Below, one piece after another: positions 5,275-9,937 of a DNA stretch of 17,687 nucleotides. Where the stretch lies: the UHGV virus genome UHGV-0085586. One strand, written 5' to 3'. The DNA comes from a virus. Both the position numbers and the translations under genes were made by a program. Every line of letters begins with the position of its first letter. Position 1 is the first letter of the stretch. The notes under the pieces were generated by a model. That model was not told the origin of the DNA, made no database searches, and was given only the letters and a program-made list of their open reading frames with translations.

Positions 5275-6201
5275 TCAGAATGTCAATTTGTTACTGGATT
5301 TACCGAATTTGTCAGACATGGCTCCCAGGCCAGCCAGGACATCGACCTGTCGCTGTCGCCCACCTCCGTGAGCGGCTGGCTGTTGCCAGTAATCTTCGAA
5401 GTGACGATCGGGTCCAAAGAACGTCGCAGCCTGCTTCACGAACTGTGTGCCGGTATTTCCTGTAGCACGTACCCAGGCGGCATACCGCTTCACGCCATCA
5501 AGCATGGTCTCCGGTTTTATTCCCTCCCTGATACGGGCTTTCCAGGCTTTGAAGGCTGCTGACTTGGAATTGCCACCAGCACGTTTGGGATATTCCTGCC
5601 AGGCCTGTTCAAATTCCGGTGAATATTCCTGTCTGGCAGAACGCGCTGGTGCAGACGCGTCAGCGGATGCGCCAATATCTTGCGGTTCATGTTTTGAATT
5701 TACTGGTGGTTCATGTTTTAAACCTTGTGGATCTGGAGTCAGATTCTGAAGGGTCAAACGCGTATTTTTGCCAGAATCTGAAGGGTCAAACACGCCTGAA
5801 CATACAGATTCTGACGGTTCAGATTTTGAAGGTTCAGAATCTGAAGGGTCACGTAATACTGAAAGTCTGCGCTGCTGTTTCAGTTCTGCAACCTTATCCC
5901 GCTCAGTTCTGGCAAGCTGCTCAAGCCGATCAGCATTCAGATGATAAAGATTGGACGTATTACGGTTACCTTTGCGGCGTGACTGACGCGTCAGCCAGCC
6001 ATCAGCCTCCAGTTCGGAGATTGCCGTTCTGACTGTACTTTCTCCCAATCCAAGCTGTCGACATATGGTTTCAACACCCGGGTAGCACACCCCGTCATCA
6101 TTCGAATAATCAGCCAGGCGCGCCATAATCATCAGTTTTGCACCTTTGACGCCATATGCTGCGCATGCATCCCAGACATTACCGAGGATCTTGCTACTCA
6201 T
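5275..6201 (-). CDS. Replication initiator (lambda O-like) with N-terminal winged-helix domain
   Basis: 308 aa; ATG at 6199-6201 (minus) preceded by GGGAGGTG. N-terminal HTH (...GVCYPGVETICRQLGLGESTVRTAISELEADGWL...). Central repetitive DPSDSEPSKSEPSES segment coincides with the DNA iterons, as for lambda O/ori. Confidence 0.8.
   Translation of the reverse strand: MSSKILGNVWDACAAYGVKGAKLMIMARLADYSNDDGVCYPGVETICRQLGLGESTVRTAISELEADGWLTRQSRRKGNRNTSNLYHLNADRLEQLARTERDKVAELKQQRRLSVLRDPSDSEPSKSEPSESVCSGVFDPSDSGKNTRLTLQNLTPDPQGLKHEPPVNSKHEPQDIGASADASAPARSARQEYSPEFEQAWQEYPKRAGGNSKSAAFKAWKARIREGIKPETMLDGVKRYAAWVRATGNTGTQFVKQAATFFGPDRHFEDYWQQPAAHGGGRQRQVDVLAGLGAMSDKFGKSSNKLTF
5684..5853. repeat. Candidate phage replication origin: five iterons plus a flanking duplicated AT-rich motif, inside the initiator gene
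   Basis: Iterons AGAWTYTGAMGGKTC at 5741-5760, 5774-5795, 5806-5820, 5821-5837 and 5836-5850; duplicated ggttcatgtttt at 5684-5695 and 5708-5719. Confidence 0.6.
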
Positions 6202-6422
6202 ACGACACCTCCCAGACGCTTAAACATTTTTCCGGACTGAAACGCCACCAGCGGGTAACTCAGGGTATAAGTACGCCCCTGCACCTGGCAGACAACCTTC
6301 TGACTTTCTGCATTGACCAGGCAAACCCGCAGAACGAGGCCGTTGCTGGTGGTAAACCACTGCCCCACTCGGGGGCAACGGTTGTATCGGTGATACAGGA
6401 AATTAACGATGTGGCGGATCAT
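6198..6422 (-). CDS. Hypothetical small protein (74 aa)
   Basis: ATG at 6420-6422 (minus) preceded by GGAGGTG; stop overlaps the initiator start (ATGA coupling). Sits in the cII-equivalent position; no recognisable motif. Confidence 0.6.
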   Translation of the reverse strand: MIRHIVNFLYHRYNRCPRVGQWFTTSNGLVLRVCLVNAESQKVVCQVQGRTYTLSYPLVAFQSGKMFKRLGGVV

Positions 6423-6613
6423 GGACGCACCTCCGCCGTAGTTACGTATTTAACCGGGCTACCTTTCATTGAGATGGTTTCACACATCTCTGCCGCTTTC
6501 AGTTCCGCTGTTTTTCTGGATTTATAGCGACGGTGCCAGACAGATACATCCGTGCGAACTGATACATCGTTTCTGTATTCCGTAGTGGAGATGATGATTT
6601 CGTAACTAATCAT
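6419..6613 (-). CDS. Hypothetical small protein (64 aa)
   Basis: ATG at 6611-6613 (minus) preceded by AGGAGG at 7 nt; ATGA overlaps with both neighbours. Confidence 0.55.
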   Translation of the reverse strand: MISYEIIISTTEYRNDVSVRTDVSVWHRRYKSRKTAELKAAEMCETISMKGSPVKYVTTAEVRP

Positions 6614-7173
6614 GGGCGAACCTCCTTGTCAGAACCATTCAGCCTGGAATCAACAAGTGCAGCGCCAAAAACAGCATCACCAACACGGTCGTACAGTTTG
6701 CTAGCCAGCGGAGATTCAACGGCCTTAAGCATTGGATAAAGCTGGCTTGTCCAGATTTGATGGATTTCACGCAAATGCAGGTATACGCCTCTGGCGTTTC
6801 GTGCGACAGCTGACATATCAGACGCATCGGCACCTGATAAACTCTTCTCCATCAGGTTAAAGGCGTTGATGTATGCCTCTTTGAACCGGGCAGCACGTTT
6901 ACCCGTGAAACCCATAGCAAGAAATGCAAAACCGTCTCGTGTGATTTGATAGCAAGGGAGCTTGCGTGTACCACCGTTCGGTTGATTTACCGAAATCGAT
7001 GTCTCCGCAAAATTGCGGGCACAAAACTCAGGGGAACAATCCAGAGTGCGGATCTTTTTCAGCACATCGTCGTGACGCTTGGAGAAGAAGTTGGCAACAG
7101 CCAAAGAAGTGGTAACGGCCTGGCCGTTGTCAATGGTGATTTCAGGTTGAGTGAGGGCTGGGATCGTAGCCAT
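6610..7173 (-). CDS. Rha-family phage regulatory protein (antirepressor-like), copy 3
   Basis: 187 aa from internal ATG at 7171-7173, 8 nt after GGAGG. Rha-type signature begins here (NGQAVTTSLAVANFFSKRHDDVLKKIR...YQITRDGFAFLAMGFTGKRAARFKEAYINAFNLME). The track ORF extends to 7470 through the leader; see findings. Confidence 0.75.
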   Translation of the reverse strand: MATIPALTQPEITIDNGQAVTTSLAVANFFSKRHDDVLKKIRTLDCSPEFCARNFAETSISVNQPNGGTRKLPCYQITRDGFAFLAMGFTGKRAARFKEAYINAFNLMEKSLSGADASDMSAVARNARGVYLHLREIHQIWTSQLYPMLKAVESPLASKLYDRVGDAVFGAALVDSRLNGSDKEVRP

Positions 7174-7470
7174 GATGGCAGCCTCCGTTGACAGTGAAAA
7201 ACTTCCACCACCGGAAACGCCAATTCCACTGGTGGTGAACTGGACGGGGTTGGCGTAACCGGCGTCAACGGAGACCGGCGCACCTTTCGGTGCCCCCGCC
7301 CAGCCCACCATAATCTGGATGTGAGCAAATGCGGACGATAAAAAAGACGCTGGCGCGTCATACATCGCCGTTGACAATTTCAGGACGCCAATCCCGGCAC
7401 CCGCTTTATAAGGTGCCTGAGCAGTGTAACGTCCCGAAATTGCAGAATCAATATGCTGGTGGCGGATCAT
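7174..7470 (-). promoter_or_regulatory. Structured leader copy A (c4-like tripartite RNA element: promoter-like site, terminator hairpin, GNRA hairpin, anti-SD, SD)
   Basis: Minus-strand TTGATT-17-TACACT (plus 7446-7451 / 7423-7428); hairpin gacgcGCCAgcgtc + U6 (plus 7340-7359); GAAA-loop hairpin (7280-7293); GUCAACGG at 7368-7377 and at the SD (7183-7192); complementary CCGUUGAC at 7262-7271. Confidence 0.6.
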
Positions 7471-7829
7471 AGGTGCACCTCCCGTTGATTACGACGGAAC
7501 GCGGAGTGACCCTGGACGGTTTCAGCCTCATGGAATGCTTCAATACAGCTCTCGTAGTACCGCATTGTGCGCAGACTTAACCCAAGCTGAAGCATCATCA
7601 GACCATCAAGGGTGATGTAATAACCACGCAGGGAGTCACCGTAGATGTGATAAGTACCCGGTATGAAATTGCGGGTAAAAAACTCGCGTGAGCAGTTCAG
7701 ATACTCGATTTTGTCAACGATGTTCTGGTGCATGCGCTTGAAATGGCAGGCAACATGCAGGGAGAAAATAACGGCCTTGCCGTTGACGACTTCGATTTTT
7801 AGGAATGGGGAAGTTAGGACAGTAGCCAT
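7467..7829 (-). CDS. Rha-family phage regulatory protein (short, antirepressor-like), copy 2
   Basis: 120 aa from internal ATG at 7827-7829 preceded by the same ACGGAGGCTGCCATC-ATG context as copy 3. Rha-like block (...GKAVIFSLHVACHFKRMHQNIVDKI...YYITLDGLMMLQLG...). Stop overlaps the leader-A ATG at 7470. Confidence 0.7.
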   Translation of the reverse strand: MATVLTSPFLKIEVVNGKAVIFSLHVACHFKRMHQNIVDKIEYLNCSREFFTRNFIPGTYHIYGDSLRGYYITLDGLMMLQLGLSLRTMRYYESCIEAFHEAETVQGHSAFRRNQREVHL

Positions 7830-8129
7830 GATGGCAGCCTCCGTATGCAATGGATAACTTCCACCACCGGAGCTGCGAAACTCATGGGTGGTGAACTGAA
7901 CAGGGTTCGCAGTACCGGCGCATACGGAAACCGGCGAGCCTTTCGGCTCCCCTGCCCAGCCCACCATAATTCTGGCGTGCGTGAGCGCGGACGATAAAAA
8001 AGACGCTGGCGCGTCATATATCGCCGTATGCAATTCCGGGCTGCGACCCCCGGCACCCGCTTTATAAGGTGCAGAGACAGTGTAACGTCCCGAAATTGCA
8101 GAATCAATATTTGGTCTTGAAATGATCAT
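7830..8129 (-). promoter_or_regulatory. Structured leader copy B (paralogous to copy A, altered pairing specificity)
   Basis: Same architecture: promoter-like TTGATT-17-TACACT (plus 8102-8107 / 8079-8084), terminator hairpin + U6 (7996-8015), GAAA hairpin (7936-7949). The three elements read GCAUACGG (8024-8031 and 7841-7848) versus CCGUAUGC (7920-7927). Confidence 0.6.
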
Positions 8130-8213
8130 ATAGCTGCTGATATCTTTAGAACTGTTCTTGGATGTTTCGGAGCCGTTTTATGCGAAACAGCTCCCCGTTA
8201 TTGATGTTGAGTG

Positions 8214-8238
8214 AGCCGGGTTACTCCCGGCTTTTTTT
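8214..8238 (+). terminator. Plus-strand-oriented intrinsic terminator-like hairpin between antirepressor genes (orphan)
   Basis: Stem agccggg (8214-8220) / cccggct (8226-8232), loop ttact, followed by T7 on the plus strand (8232-8238). On the minus strand an A-run precedes it, so it is not a minus-strand terminator. A second hairpin lies at 8168-8195. Confidence 0.4.
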
Positions 8239-8945
8239 CACCGCTGCCAACCAATAACCTGAAATAACCCCATTTTCGGGTGATACCAGCGAGTCCCTCG
8301 CGGTTCTGCTTCCTCCATAACCCGATAAAAAGCAGCCATAAACGGTTCCACAGCAACAATTGCGCGACGTGACAACAATCCGTCCGGCGTCATGAACTCA
8401 TGTGTATCTGTAGGAATTTGATAGGCGTTCACCAGATTGCGGCATTTATCATCTGACAAACCGGTTTTTGCTTTCAGTTGGCGATATCCGGCATAGCCCT
8501 CACGAATAGTGCCCTTTTTAATTTGCTCGACTGTTTCAGCAACGTGGCTGACTTTTTCTTCCACCTGAGTGATCCGTTTCTGTTGGCGAACGGCTTCAAG
8601 AGCCATCGCGGCAACCATTTCGATTTCGCTCATTGGCTTACGGATCTGTTCTTCCAGTTCGCGCCAGCGATCTACCAGGCGAGCTGTGAATTCAGGACAG
8701 AGCTGTGCGACGACAATGATGCTGTCGCGCTTACCTTGTTCACCTTCGAATACATACGCGCTAGAAAATCGGCGAGGCCCAAGTGATTGTTTATTCTCAA
8801 TTTCCACAGTCTGTGGAAATTGGATGATTCCCTTTTTAGCCAGTGTTTCAATAGTTCTCTTAACACTATCTGGTCGGCTTCCCACCAGCTCTGCGATCTC
8901 AACGCTGGTCATGGATGCTTTGCCGTTAAAAATTGCGGTGTTCAT
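8238..8945 (-). CDS. Phage regulatory protein, Rha/antirepressor family with C-terminal extension, copy 1
   Basis: 235 aa; ATG at 8943-8945 (minus), 7 nt after AGGAGA. N-terminal MTSVEIAELVGSRPDSVKRTIETL... and ...VVAQLCPEFTARLVDRWRELEEQ resemble phage antirepressor DNA-binding domains. Confidence 0.75.
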   Translation of the reverse strand: MNTAIFNGKASMTSVEIAELVGSRPDSVKRTIETLAKKGIIQFPQTVEIENKQSLGPRRFSSAYVFEGEQGKRDSIIVVAQLCPEFTARLVDRWRELEEQIRKPMSEIEMVAAMALEAVRQQKRITQVEEKVSHVAETVEQIKKGTIREGYAGYRQLKAKTGLSDDKCRNLVNAYQIPTDTHEFMTPDGLLSRRAIVAVEPFMAAFYRVMEEAEPRGTRWYHPKMGLFQVIGWQR

Positions 8946-9169
8946 TGTTGGTCTCCTGTGGGCTTGTCATCTTCTGTATTCGCTAGACTTGGGTGTGTAT
9001 ATGGAATGCTCGGATCCAGATGACAAAGAATGGCAACATCCTCCGGAACACCTCGCGTTTTCCACTTTCCAACACCTTGACTGCCACGAGGCCTTCCTTT
9101 CTTTGGGAACCTGCGACCAATAGCGGCATTGGTTTTAAATTGAATTTTTAATATTTCATAAAGGGTCAT
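8942..9169 (-). CDS. Small first gene of the early-right operon (Cro position; function unverified)
   Basis: 75 aa; ATG at 9167-9169 (minus); stop overlaps the Rha copy 1 start (ATGA). Basic, partly low-complexity; no clear helix-turn-helix, so the Cro call is positional only. Confidence 0.4.
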   Translation of the reverse strand: MTLYEILKIQFKTNAAIGRRFPKKGRPRGSQGVGKWKTRGVPEDVAILCHLDPSIPYTHPSLANTEDDKPTGDQQ

Positions 9170-9186: not shown

Positions 9187-9258
9187 GATACTTTGTTATC
9201 CAACGATGTTAACCACAGGAATCCAAAGTATCAAGAAATTCTGTTACTTTAGTATCAA
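9187..9258. promoter_or_regulatory. OR-like divergent promoter/operator region between the Cro-position gene and the repressor
   Basis: Three copies of A(A/G)GTATCA: 9187-9195 (inverted), 9226-9233, 9251-9258. Palindrome AAGTATCA-N8-TGTTACTT at 9226-9249. Minus-strand pR candidate TTGATA(9229-9234)-17-TAACAT(9206-9211). Confidence 0.45.
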
Positions 9259-9280
9259 CAACCATGAGAGGAGAAGAAAA

Positions 9281-9937
9281 ATGAAGTCTTTAGGTGAACG
9301 TCTCATCAACGCACGGCAAAAAGCTGGGTTAACACAAGATGCGTTGGCTAAAAAAGCTGGGATCACCAGAGTTGCAATCAGTAAAGCCGAGCAAGGCCTT
9401 ACAAAAAGTTTCAACGGTGACACCCTTTTTAAAGTTGCAGCTGCACTGCGGTGTTCACCGCAGTGGCTTCAGAACGGAGATGAAAAAGATAAGCATTGGG
9501 AAAATAATGTTAAGAGCTGCCCACAGAGAGACACAGCACACTCTTACCCTGTAATTAACTGGGTTCAGGCAGGATTATTCGCAACTTCTGGTGATGACTA
9601 CAACATGTATGATCAGGATAATTGGAGGCATTCTGTAAAATACGCTGGTGAGAGGGGGTTCTGGCTGGAAGTGCACGGAGACTCAATGACTTCGCCCGTA
9701 GGAATAACATTTCCTGAAGGAATGTCGATCCTTGTCAACCCAGATAAAGAAGTTTTTTCAGGGTGTTACGTCATCGCCAGAAAAAAATCCACCAATGAAG
9801 CAACATTCAAAAAATATATTTCTGACATGGGAAAGGCGTTTCTAAAGCCCCTTAATCCACAATATCCAATCATAGAAATGGACAATGATTGCGAAATAGT
9901 AGGTGTTGTGGTTGATGCCAGGTGGGATATTTTCTGA
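9281..9937 (+). CDS. cI-type prophage repressor, HTH-XRE N-domain + S24 (LexA-like) autopeptidase C-domain
   Basis: 218 aa from ATG 9281, after gagaggagaag. HTH (LTQDALAKKAGITRVAISKAEQG); Ala-Gly cleavage site (VQAGLF); Ser nucleophile in GDSM and downstream Lys (ARKKS). The track ORF starts at 9206 in the leader. Confidence 0.9.
   Translation: MKSLGERLINARQKAGLTQDALAKKAGITRVAISKAEQGLTKSFNGDTLFKVAAALRCSPQWLQNGDEKDKHWENNVKSCPQRDTAHSYPVINWVQAGLFATSGDDYNMYDQDNWRHSVKYAGERGFWLEVHGDSMTSPVGITFPEGMSILVNPDKEVFSGCYVIARKKSTNEATFKKYISDMGKAFLKPLNPQYPIIEMDNDCEIVGVVVDARWDIF

Follow-up and report, generated by a model that had tools for sequence, protein, structure and literature searches.

Two tandem C4/IsrK-type RNA cassettes with different address elements precede the Rha genes of a phage genome

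The DNA analysed here, referred to as the window, is a stretch of 17,687 nucleotides from the virus genome UHGV-0085586. Our main reading, to which we assign a probability of about 0.75, is that it carries two complete, differently addressed C4/IsrK cassettes, each controlling its own Rha gene as an independent channel. The preliminary description had reported a paralogous leader of ~300 bp upstream of each of two tandem Rha genes and had compared three short elements in it with the c4 system of phages P1 and P7. The two leaders are an ungapped direct repeat of 294 nt (7161-7454 and 7817-8110) with 80% identity, and c4-like control is supported. The former elements 1, 2 and 3 correspond to b1, b' and the SD-fused b2 of P1. 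When the minus strand is read directly, the positions given for these elements are right to within 1-3 nt in both copies. The triple that they form is real; a second covarying triple (a1, a', a2) had been missed.

Two cassettes in front of two Rha genes

All cassette features and both rha genes lie on the minus strand. A cI-like S24 repressor gene is found on the plus strand (9206-9937) and a small ORF occupies the cro position on the minus strand (8942-9169); as part of the best explanation, both cassettes and the rha genes belong to the early operon of a lambdoid prophage. The predicted target of cassette A, rha-A (6610..7173), encodes a 187-aa Rha-family regulator that scores above the cut-offs of Phage_pRha PF09669 (95.1 bits against 29.9) and TIGR02681 (88.1 against 45.95) and matches phrog_821 (6.9e-103). 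The predicted target of cassette B, rha-B (7467..7829), encodes a short Rha-family regulator of 120 aa, which shares 37% identity with Rha-A, matches phrog_995 (1.6e-55) as well as phrog_518 (Rha-like), and is weak against PF09669 (28 bits, cut-off 29.9) and TIGR02681 (35.6, cut-off 45.95). Rha proteins are called antirepressors by family annotation only.

Cassette B begins with a candidate promoter consisting of a -35 TTGATT (8102..8107), a 17-nt spacer and a -10 TACACT (8079..8084), with a predicted start near G8072. The same letters recur in cassette A (-35 at 7446..7451, -10 at 7423..7428, predicted start near G7416). Both candidates score 8/12, and a scan for the sigma-70 consensus with a cut-off of 9/12 flagged neither; they are called as promoters because the TAnnnT pattern is conserved across 72 homologous cassettes, in which the T, A and final T of the -10 are invariant or nearly so while the middle bases vary. 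The match to the isrK model begins 7 nt 3' of the candidate -10. The IsrK-type RNA of cassette B (7996..8072), which carries a1 and b1, comprises two hairpins, a linker and an intrinsic terminator. Its a1, GTCGCAG (8041..8047), lies in the loop of hairpin 2 and pairs with a'; b1 is GCATACGG (8024..8031), and the terminator hairpin GACGCGCCAGCGTC (8002..8015) is followed by a T-run. In cassette A the IsrK-type RNA spans 7340..7416, with a1 TTGGCGT at 7385..7391, b1 GTCAACGG at 7368..7375 and the terminator hairpin at 7346..7359. The terminator scan found both terminators independently of the isrK model.

The C4 antisense RNA of cassette B (7884..7971; predicted fold -46.2 kcal/mol, with the family structure) presents b' CCGTATGC (7920..7927) in the 12-nt loop of its hairpin 2 and a' CTGCGAA (7906..7912) in its single-stranded 3' internal strand. 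The first target site 3' of C4 is a2, TTCGCAG (7873..7879), and b2, GCATACGG fused to the SD GGAGG, reads GCATACGGAGG (7838..7848) ahead of the rha-B ATG at 7829. Correspondingly, the C4 RNA of cassette A (7228..7315; predicted fold -52.2 kcal/mol) holds b' CCGTTGAC (7264..7271), in a region that provides a perfect 10-nt complement to 7183-7192, and a' ACGCCAA (7250..7256); a2 is TTGGCGT (7217..7223), and b2, GTCAACGG fused to GGAGG, reads GTCAACGGAGG (7182..7192) ahead of the rha-A ATG at 7173. The fusion of b2 to a GGAGG located 9 nt before the ATG is shared by both copies and nearly all of the 72 cassettes. Minimum-free-energy folds of the C4 RNAs give a long closing stem around two hairpins, whereas in that of the whole leader B b1 pairs with b' in cis and C4 is not formed.

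The Rfam scan proposed in the preliminary description placed both leaders above the gathering scores of C4 (RF01695, 45 bits) and isrK (RF01394, 50 bits). The C4 model is matched over positions 1-87 of 87 with 83.3 bits in B and 81.4 bits in A, and the isrK model with 58.8 and 62.2 bits, respectively. For c4-a1b1 (RF03163, gathering score 46.7) copy A stays below threshold with 22.5 bits and copy B gives no match at E <= 0.1. The loop of hairpin 1 in the IsrK-type RNA of the window differs from the c4-a1b1 model. The a1/b1 carrier of the window is functionally the same element as c4-a1b1, though filed outside RF03163. Both cassettes look intact.

A two-part address code

Copies A and B differ in only the three central bases of each of b1, b' and b2, with identical flanks, which confirms the coordinated changes noted before. 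The chance of three matched positions at two further sites is ~(1/64)^2, with the second triple not yet counted. Compensatory differences between A and B also occur in C4 hairpin 1 (GCACC/GGUGC versus GAGCC/GGCUC) and in the outer stem of C4. Pairing between the elements was assessed in 72 distinct homologous cassettes (alignment A1, in which the b':b2 helix occupies columns 206-217/305-316 and the a':a2 helix columns 227-233/263-272), with shuffled and slid pairings as controls. The b':b2 and a':a2 helices together with the C4 stems are 97.2% paired, compared with 80.8% after shuffling and 37-48% after sliding; b1:b' together with a1:a' are 97.0% paired, compared with 65.2% and 36-49%. In both tests, none of 500 shuffles reached the observed covariation score.

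This alignment of homologous leaders, likewise proposed beforehand, reveals covariation in all four intermolecular pairings, and the matched changes seen between A and B extend to the family at 97% pairing. The a1:a' helix is 97.8% paired with both sides changed at 6/7 pairs, the b1:b' helix 96.3% paired (8/9 pairs), the a':a2 helices 94-98% paired (6/7 pairs) and the b':b2 helix 93.1% paired (8/12 pairs). Among the stems, the outer stem of C4 is 99.8% paired and changes on both sides at 9/17 pairs; hairpin 1 of C4 does so at 4/5 pairs and hairpin 1 of IsrK at 6/6. Among the 72 cassettes there are 21 variants of b' and 11 of a', which occur in 33 combinations. As shown across the family, the address code has two parts that assort independently, each changing as a matched triple.

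In both copies of the window, a':a2 forms 7 bp and b':b2, GGAGG included, as many as 12 bp. A and B differ at 3/8 positions in b and at 3-4/7 in a; recognition by each C4 should therefore be restricted to the rha mRNA and the IsrK-type RNA of the same cassette, which would create two independent channels. For the cognate combinations, b':b2 and a':a2 together give duplex energies of -29.2 and -27.2 kcal/mol, versus -12.2 and -11.9 kcal/mol for the non-cognate ones. The corresponding values for P1/P7, which are described as heteroimmune through c4 (PMC12197685), are -20.1 and -20.2 versus -8.2 and -10.5. Judged from these sequences, A and B are probably orthogonal, because they differ more from each other than P1 does from heteroimmune P7; the shared CCG/CGGAGG part still allows b' and b2 of different copies to pair with -8.5 to -10.3 kcal/mol.

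Related immunity systems and the proposed mechanism

Citron and Schuster reportedly described in 1990 that the c4 antisense RNA of P1/P7 immI, with the elements a1 b1, a' b' and a2 b2, controls icd-ant. In P1 immI (NC_005856) all six elements are colinear with those of the window, in the order a1, b1, C4 (b', a'), a2 and b2-SD. As in the window, a1 lies in a hairpin loop and b1 follows immediately. Within C4, hairpin 2 presents b' in its loop and the 3' internal strand contains a'; a2 comes directly after C4, and b2-SD ~30 nt beyond. P1 scores 68.8 bits for C4, 51 for c4-a1b1 (pass) and 35.1 for isrK (fail); the window, which has a canonical terminator, conversely passes isrK and not c4-a1b1. 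Specificity changes as matched triples in P1, P7 and D6, and the matched differences between P1 and P7 invoked in the preliminary description were verified by alignment. The two specificities of P1 and P7 reside in different phages with one cassette per genome, whereas the window has two specificities of its own in tandem. Moreover, the target in P1 is icd, with ant translated by coupling, while in the window the Rha gene itself is targeted. One of the two P1 promoters is overlapped by a C1 operator.

By analogy with these systems, the constitutive internal promoter TTGATT-17-TACACT would make a short IsrK-type RNA, and read-through of the terminator would yield a leader from which C4 is released, with RNase P as in P1/P4. 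The a' and b' of C4 would pair with a2 and b2, hide the SD and block translation of rha, with secondary polarity as a probable consequence. By mimicking the target and competing for a'/b', the a1/b1 RNA would relieve the block, comparable to the activation of anrP by IsrK in Gifsy-1. Ribosomes on early-operon transcripts, or those starting at the C4 AUG, may also translate through the cassette, because the leader frame is open into rha and usually ATGA-coupled upstream.

The isrK-orf45(STnc1160)-anrP region of Gifsy-1 is arranged as in the window and scores 79.3 bits for isrK, 69 for C4 and 48.1 for c4-a1b1. Its a specificity is that of copy A (TTGGCGT/ACGCCAA), its terminator is read through and, as in the window, an AUG at the 5' end of C4 opens an ORF that reaches the start codon of the effector. 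Only one cassette is present in Gifsy-1, where it follows the Q gene, whereas the window has two, and orf45 ends in an ATGA overlap with anrP, whereas the frame of the window is fused to rha (138 nt versus 134 in Gifsy-1). Rha-A was tested as a homologue of AnrP and is unrelated. In Gifsy-1, pairing of the IsrK region with the C4 region was proven experimentally (Hershko-Shalev et al. 2016, PMC4825925). The authors attribute control to a cis-refolding switch of the leader, with IsrK as the activator of anrP, and not to a free C4-like repressor; trans activation is lost in IsrK G28 or G31 mutants, anrP expression needs translation of orf45, and constitutive STnc1160 left IsrK toxicity unrelieved (PMC4825925). 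As G28/G31 fall in a1 TTGGCGT and C159/C162 in a' ACGCCAA, the published compensatory mutants test the a1:a' helix.

The window might accordingly work by such a cis switch only, with a1/b1 locking a'/b' in the read-through transcript, an IsrK-type RNA as trans activator and no free C4. The mutational, native-gel and footprinting data from Gifsy-1 (PMC4825925) and the cis pairing of b1 with b' in the minimum-free-energy fold of leader B favour this possibility, which we nevertheless regard as unlikely. It leaves unexplained why a2/b2 covary with a'/b' as tightly as a1/b1 do, and a stable processed STnc1160 species exists in Salmonella. Furthermore, the double mutants G28A+C162U and G31A+C159U reach 224 and 327 units versus 4 in the wild type, ~50-80-fold higher (PMC4825925); we infer, as the authors did not, that such levels are expected if a mutated a' fails to pair with an unchanged a2.

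A different output is known from the immunity region of P4 (seqA, the CI RNA = seqB, and seqC), which contains both Rfam families in the same order as the window (C4 74.9, isrK 60.8 and c4-a1b1 44.1 bits). The P4 specificities (TTCACAGG / GTGAGAA) are found among the cassettes collected here, too. P4 has one cassette and no Rha target, and its output is premature transcription termination of the replication operon. If the window followed this seqA/seqC logic, its C4-like RNA would mainly cause premature transcription termination rather than mask the RBS, an option consistent with the shared models and layout, the description of the P4 CI RNA as a termination factor and the intrinsic terminator directly 3' of b1 in both cassettes. 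We consider it quite improbable as the main output, since the fusion of b2 to GGAGG, 9 nt from the ATG, is the arrangement of translational repression in P1. The two modes are compatible rather than exclusive. In P1, the translational block causes Rho-dependent termination.

Tandem arrays and the open frame through the leaders

The preliminary description rightly held that two specificities stand in tandem in the window, but this is a recurrent architecture and not a singular case. Tandem arrays recur in at least 72 E. coli genomes, in several phage contigs (one with three cassettes) and in Symbiopectobacterium. The SD-linked b triple differs between neighbouring cassettes in 10/10 distinct arrays (the window and nine others), the a triple is common to the cassettes of the Symbiopectobacterium array, and the arrays conserve both a period of ~656 nt and a short rha gene in first place. 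In a fixed-pattern scan of 596 Gb, the matches listed were mostly chance matches in GC-rich genomes; among them were ~7 loci with nhmmer matches, two or three of them full-length (L165 with two cassettes, and L233). Lone relatives with 99% identity exist elsewhere for cassette B (L106) and cassette A (L053). A recent duplication in situ with subsequent divergence is rejected, as A and B are 76% identical and each is 99% identical to a lone cassette elsewhere. C4 cassettes in tandem did not come up in a literature search that had most subscription papers outside its reach. Both copies are members of a described family; the tandem, ORF-embedded, in-frame arrangement alone seems undescribed.

That the tandem pair is a passive product of recombination, in which one copy is redundant, decaying or cross-talking and the specificities are without function, appears very unlikely to us. 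In favour of this view, each cassette has its 99% identical relative elsewhere, repeats at the junctions suggest recombination at gene starts, the Symbiopectobacterium neighbours share a triple and exclusivity within arrays is statistically insecure (estimated p ~0.07 for a and ~0.3 for b). However, both copies keep a promoter, a terminator, a C4 match of >80 bits, six matched elements and an intact rha ORF, and neither the b triples that differ between neighbours in all ten distinct arrays nor the conserved period and short first rha fit a passive origin.

The leaders are also translatable. Both lie inside long ORFs in frame with rha (7467..8129 through cassette B and 6610..7470 through cassette A), a position absent from the preliminary description. 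The AUG at the 5' end of C4, located at 7967..7965 in B and 7311..7309 in A, is in frame in both cases. The ATG of the long frame through cassette A overlaps the stop codon of rha-B (ATGA) and is preceded by GGGAGGTG. Among the homologues the C4 AUG is present in 72/72 cassettes, the frame is open to the rha start in 71/72, and on its upstream side it usually reaches an ATGA junction or merges with a longer ORF. Stop codons account for 4/816 distinct codon variants in the leader frame versus 71/1643 in the other two (p = 6e-9), a bias by which we judge that the leader frame is kept open by selection. There is no signature of codon position, as entropies at positions 1/2/3 are 0.77/0.80/0.78 (alignment A1) and differences between A and B are distributed 20/16/20. 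Starting from the C4 AUG, the P1 frame meets a TAA within the b' loop, whereas that of the window stays open and is fused to rha.

The leader translations pass Pfam PF10554 Phage_ASH with 62.7 and 74.9 bits (gathering score 26), PHROG families take in the leader, and PGAP labels homologues 'ash family protein'. In P4, however, PF10554 matches the old 137-aa 'cI' ORF, which overlaps the CI RNA gene, and not epsilon (= PF25738). Pfam Phage_ASH turns out to represent the translated C4/CI RNA locus. The view that the leaders are simply the N-terminal 'Ash' domain of Ash-Rha fusion proteins, with incidental complementary octamers, can appeal to these family matches and to the selectively open frames, but it is largely refuted by two covariance models above threshold in each leader, by base pairing that persists in the stems and between the elements although both partners change, by variability that is flat over codon positions, by the P4 match and the closed P1 frame, and by Gifsy-1 orf45, which, as summarised in a review, is reported to be conserved in nucleotides and variable in amino acids (PMC12197685). 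Translation as part of a long protein had been named at the outset as a finding that would speak against RNA control; the leader ORF is indeed selectively open, but the leader is not simply translated, because the constraints on its sequence are those of RNA. The selected property appears to be translation rather than the peptide.

Returning to the two independently addressed cassettes, we tentatively suggest that they are dual-use, in-frame RNA locks which can be overridden by upstream-coupled translation, and that arrays of them constitute independent Rha channels. From their own promoter, the cassettes would produce non-coding RNAs that lock the downstream regulator; on upstream transcripts, ribosomes would cross the terminator, C4 and the SD and give fusion proteins. 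If this is true, a recombining library with at least 21 b and 11 a addresses would supply arrays of 2-3 cassettes, and each channel of such an array would gate a different Rha paralogue of the same prophage.

Recognition of the 'Ash' family as the translation of an RNA gene affects genome annotation as well as studies that use PF10554 as a marker of P4 epsilon (PMC8628076). The matched-triple code explains heteroimmunity of the P1/P7 type in general terms, and the collected addresses are an available source of RNA regulators that are presumably orthogonal. At present, the 'Rha/Ash' genes adjoining cI are regarded as encoding proteins whose role is unknown (PMC8951638); the tandem arrays imply that the lysis-lysogeny circuits of many E. 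coli and Stx phages include Rha regulators under separate control.

Anatomy of the two leaders and the P1 immI layout

The cassettes lie among genes of the immunity and early region of a lambdoid prophage. Around the S24/HTH repressor gene (9206-9937, plus strand), the minus strand carries a small ORF in the cro position (8942-9169) without Pfam match and, directly after it, an Ant/Rha-like gene (8238-8945; phrog_63, 3e-46), which is the third of its kind and is leaderless, i.e., without C4/IsrK. Beyond the two cassettes and their Rha genes follow two small ORFs and then replication genes. A G+C-rich hairpin (8213-8233) between the Ant/Rha-like gene and cassette B is scored by the scan as a terminator for the plus strand only. 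It is overlapped by a sub-threshold Rfam match to sroD (8178-8238, plus strand; 24.5 bits versus a gathering score of 50, E = 0.03), which is most likely due to chance.

On the minus strand, the leaders form an ungapped direct repeat of 294 nt with 80% identity (7161-7454 and 7817-8110). The preliminary description had placed three matched octamers in each leader, and its positions are correct to within 1-3 nt. Read directly from the minus strand, copy A comprises GTCAACGG (7375..7368), CCGTTGAC (7271..7264) and the SD-fused GTCAACGGAGG (7182..7192), followed by an ATG at 7173, and copy B comprises GCATACGG (8031..8024), CCGTATGC (7927..7920) and the SD-fused GCATACGGAGG (7838..7848), followed by an ATG at 7829. 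The flanks, described as near-identical, are in fact identical in both copies, and the differences are confined to the three central bases. A second matched triple emerges from the A/B alignment, likewise on the minus strand: TTGGCGT (7391..7385), ACGCCAA (7256..7250) and TTGGCGT (7223..7217) in copy A, and GTCGCAG (8047..8041), CTGCGAA (7912..7906) and TTCGCAG (7879..7873) in copy B. The first member of this triple occupies the loop of IsrK hairpin 2 and the second the single-stranded 3' internal strand of C4.

Scanning with Rfam covariance models, the check suggested in the preliminary description, gives a clear result. The C4 model matches both leaders over its full length with 83.3 (B) and 81.4 (A) bits (gathering score 45), and the isrK model matches both with 58.8 (B) and 62.2 (A) bits (gathering score 50). 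An independent terminator scan finds intrinsic terminators closing each IsrK-type element (8015-8002 in B, 7359-7346 in A). Each C4 alone folds into the family structure, a long closing stem enclosing two hairpins (-46 kcal/mol for B, -52 kcal/mol for A). In the annotated record of P1 immI, a1 resides in a hairpin loop that is closely followed by b1; within C4, the loop of hairpin 2 contains b' and the 3' strand contains a'; a2 directly follows C4, and the SD-fused b2 lies ~30 nt further. Both window cassettes share this arrangement and, judged by sequence, their layout is exactly that of P1 immI. Thus, the three octamers correspond to b1, b' and b2, and the second triple to a1, a' and a2. The matched changes between P1 and P7 stated in the preliminary description are confirmed by an alignment of P1, P7 and D6: from P1 to P7, two bases change in a (TTGACAG vs TTAGCAG) and two in b (GTTAGTG vs GATTGTG), matched at all three places, while D6 combines the a address of P1 with a different b.

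Covariation and the open reading frame across the family

Viral contigs were scanned for a single exact pattern of the C4 loop and then searched with nhmmer, which yielded 72 distinct cassettes (alignment A1); the sample is biased towards Enterobacterales phages. The covariation anticipated for homologous leaders is found both in the stems and in the intermolecular pairings. For the C4 and IsrK stems together with b':b2 and a':a2, 97.2% of the cells are paired, compared to 80.8% after shuffling and 37-48% when the partner is slid by 1-3 columns, and the covariation score is 0.483 vs 0.175 (0/500 shuffles). For b1:b' and a1:a', the corresponding values are 97.0, 65.2 and 36-49%, with a score of 0.803 vs 0.189 (0/500 shuffles). 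Two-sided changes occur at most pairs in all four intermolecular helices. Shared descent and recombination among the cassettes cause the shuffle controls to overstate independence; sliding the partner avoids this problem and gives an equally clear result. The repertoire comprises 21 b' cores and 11 a' heptamers in 33 combinations. Hence, the two address parts assort independently, as in P1 vs D6. In several lineages (L070, L037, L081, L018a, L087, L032, L025, L121, L084b, L026b, L019b and others), one A-to-G change, located opposite a U of b', distinguishes b1 from b2, so that the decoy site pairs by G-U and the SD-linked site by A-U. The upstream decoy could systematically be the weaker partner; the window cassettes have identical b1 and b2 sites.

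According to the preliminary description, its reading would be refuted if the region were simply translated within a long protein. Both leaders indeed lie inside ORFs in frame with rha (7467-8129 and 6610-7470), their translations (7174-7470 and 7830-8129) exceed the threshold of Pfam Phage_ASH (PF10554), and RefSeq names the homologs "ash family protein". An AUG is present at the C4 5' end in 72/72 cassettes and the frame is open from there to the rha start in 71/72, mostly over 135-144 nt in multiples of three; the IsrK part is also open in 71/72. Among distinct codon variants, stops account for 4/816 in the rha frame, all four from one sequence, compared to 34/824 and 37/819 in the other two frames (71/1643 jointly; p = 6e-9). 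The stop-free frame spans promoter, IsrK, terminator, C4 and SD, and begins upstream usually with an ATG overlapping the preceding TGA (ATGA) or in a longer ORF (up to >400 codons upstream). The open frame is thus no accident, but protein-type conservation is not seen: alignment A1 has no codon-position signature (variability 0.77/0.80/0.78 by position), differences between A and B fall 20/16/20 on the codon positions, and the visible constraints are base pairs. In P1, a stop in b' interrupts the same frame, which is open in the window. The Gifsy-1 homolog, orf45, is translated and required for anrP expression; according to a review (PMC12197685), its amino-acid sequence is not conserved. In our view, the leader is an RNA element, and what keeps its frame open appears to be a need for translation rather than a need for the peptide.

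In P4 (L123 8168-8584, 7888-8175), PF10554 matches the obsolete 137-aa "cI" ORF, which overlaps with the gene for CI RNA (74.9 bits to the Rfam C4 model). Phage_ASH therefore corresponds to an RNA locus in translated form. The P4 epsilon protein belongs to another family, PF25738. A published survey took PF10554 as an epsilon marker (PMC8628076), and a study on Stx phages regards "Ash" as a protein domain whose function is not known (PMC8951638).

Proposed regulation

By analogy to P1, P4 and Gifsy-1, each cassette would be driven by a candidate constitutive internal promoter (TTGATT-17-TACACT), in which the initial TA and the final T of the -10 hexamer vary little or not at all across the 72 cassettes. 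Transcription from this promoter would give a short IsrK-type RNA and, upon read-through, an RNA comprising C4 and rha. C4 would pair with a2 and b2 and mask the SD, and the a1/b1 RNA would compete for a' and b' and relieve the block, an idea credited by Weinberg et al. to Citron and Schuster. The Gifsy-1 mutations map to a1 (G28, G31) and a' (C159, C162; L244 1492-1740), and the published compensatory pairs thus directly test the a1:a' helix. The double mutants (G28A/G31A with C162U/C159U) gave 224 and 327 units vs 4 for wild type (Table 1D, PMC4825925), i.e., 50-80-fold over wild type, and wild-type repression was not regained. In our interpretation, which is not that of the Gifsy-1 authors, this persistent derepression reflects loss of a':a2 pairing; it would be expected if a' has to pair with the unmutated a2 as well, so that P1-type repression by the C4 homolog STnc1160 is at work in Gifsy-1 too. 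Two alternatives for the use of the pairing are still in play: cis refolding, as modelled by the Gifsy-1 authors, and termination of the P4 type.

C4, IsrK and the a1b1 motif have been described (Rfam; Weinberg 2010; Hershko-Shalev 2016, PMC4825925), and an APSE phage record annotates a'/b' features (discussed in PMC7313666). The literature searched contained no description of tandem cassettes with different addresses, of the combinatorial a x b repertoire, of the in-frame embedding or of the "Ash" domain as a C4 locus, which is weak evidence as few subscription papers were covered.

Tandem arrays and predicted separation of A and B

Two specificities in tandem within one prophage, as proposed in the preliminary description, recur in other genomes. 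A near-identical arrangement (>=80% query coverage) is present in 72/5,426 complete E. coli genomes. Arrays occur in seven viral contigs. Six of them have two cassettes each, two of the six with identical addresses; the seventh, L026 (9627-11223), has a row of three cassettes in which all three b and all three a addresses differ. In a Symbiopectobacterium genome (L165 134-1242), two cassettes share the a address of P7 and hardly differ outside the three b sites (ACCAAAG vs CTCCAGG). The SD-linked b triple differs between neighbors in 10/10 distinct arrays (the window and nine others) and so does the a triple, Symbiopectobacterium excepted. With few arrays, this exclusivity is only suggestive (p ~0.07 for a and ~0.3 for b, estimated from address frequencies). 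In one contig (L059 3151-3801), the two cassettes are just 369 nt apart, so that an ORF between them would have to be very short.

A and B are 76% identical, and each is 99% identical to a lone cassette in another contig. This rejects local duplication and drift, and the array was therefore assembled by cassette recombination. A repeated 24-nt junction, GGAGGTGC..ATGATCCGCCAC, at three consecutive gene starts (6411-6434, 6602-6625 and 7459-7482) comprises an SD, an ATG that overlaps with the TGA of the gene before it, and the codons for the initial residues MIRH; it looks like a recombination seam and fits cassette exchange. The start of the long ORF in cassette A is taken from a 74-aa ORF (6198-6422).

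Inside rha-B, ~40 nt after the ATG, CGTCAACGG (7780-7788, minus strand) is a perfect 9-nt complement of the b' loop of the other cassette's C4 (C4-A). It lies within conserved VVNG codons and also occurs in first-position rha genes of other arrays irrespective of leader address; the complementarity may be an accident of a protein motif or may mark a site of cross-regulation.

A and B differ at 3/8 positions in b and 3-4/7 in a. The summed b':b2 and a':a2 duplex energies are -29.2 and -27.2 kcal/mol for the cognate and -12.2 and -11.9 kcal/mol for the crossed combinations, compared to -20.1 and -20.2 (cognate) and -8.2 and -10.5 kcal/mol (crossed) for P1/P7, which are described as heteroimmune through c4 (review, PMC12197685). 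Hence, A and B are predicted to discriminate between their targets, with a separation at least as large as that of a pair reported to be heteroimmune.
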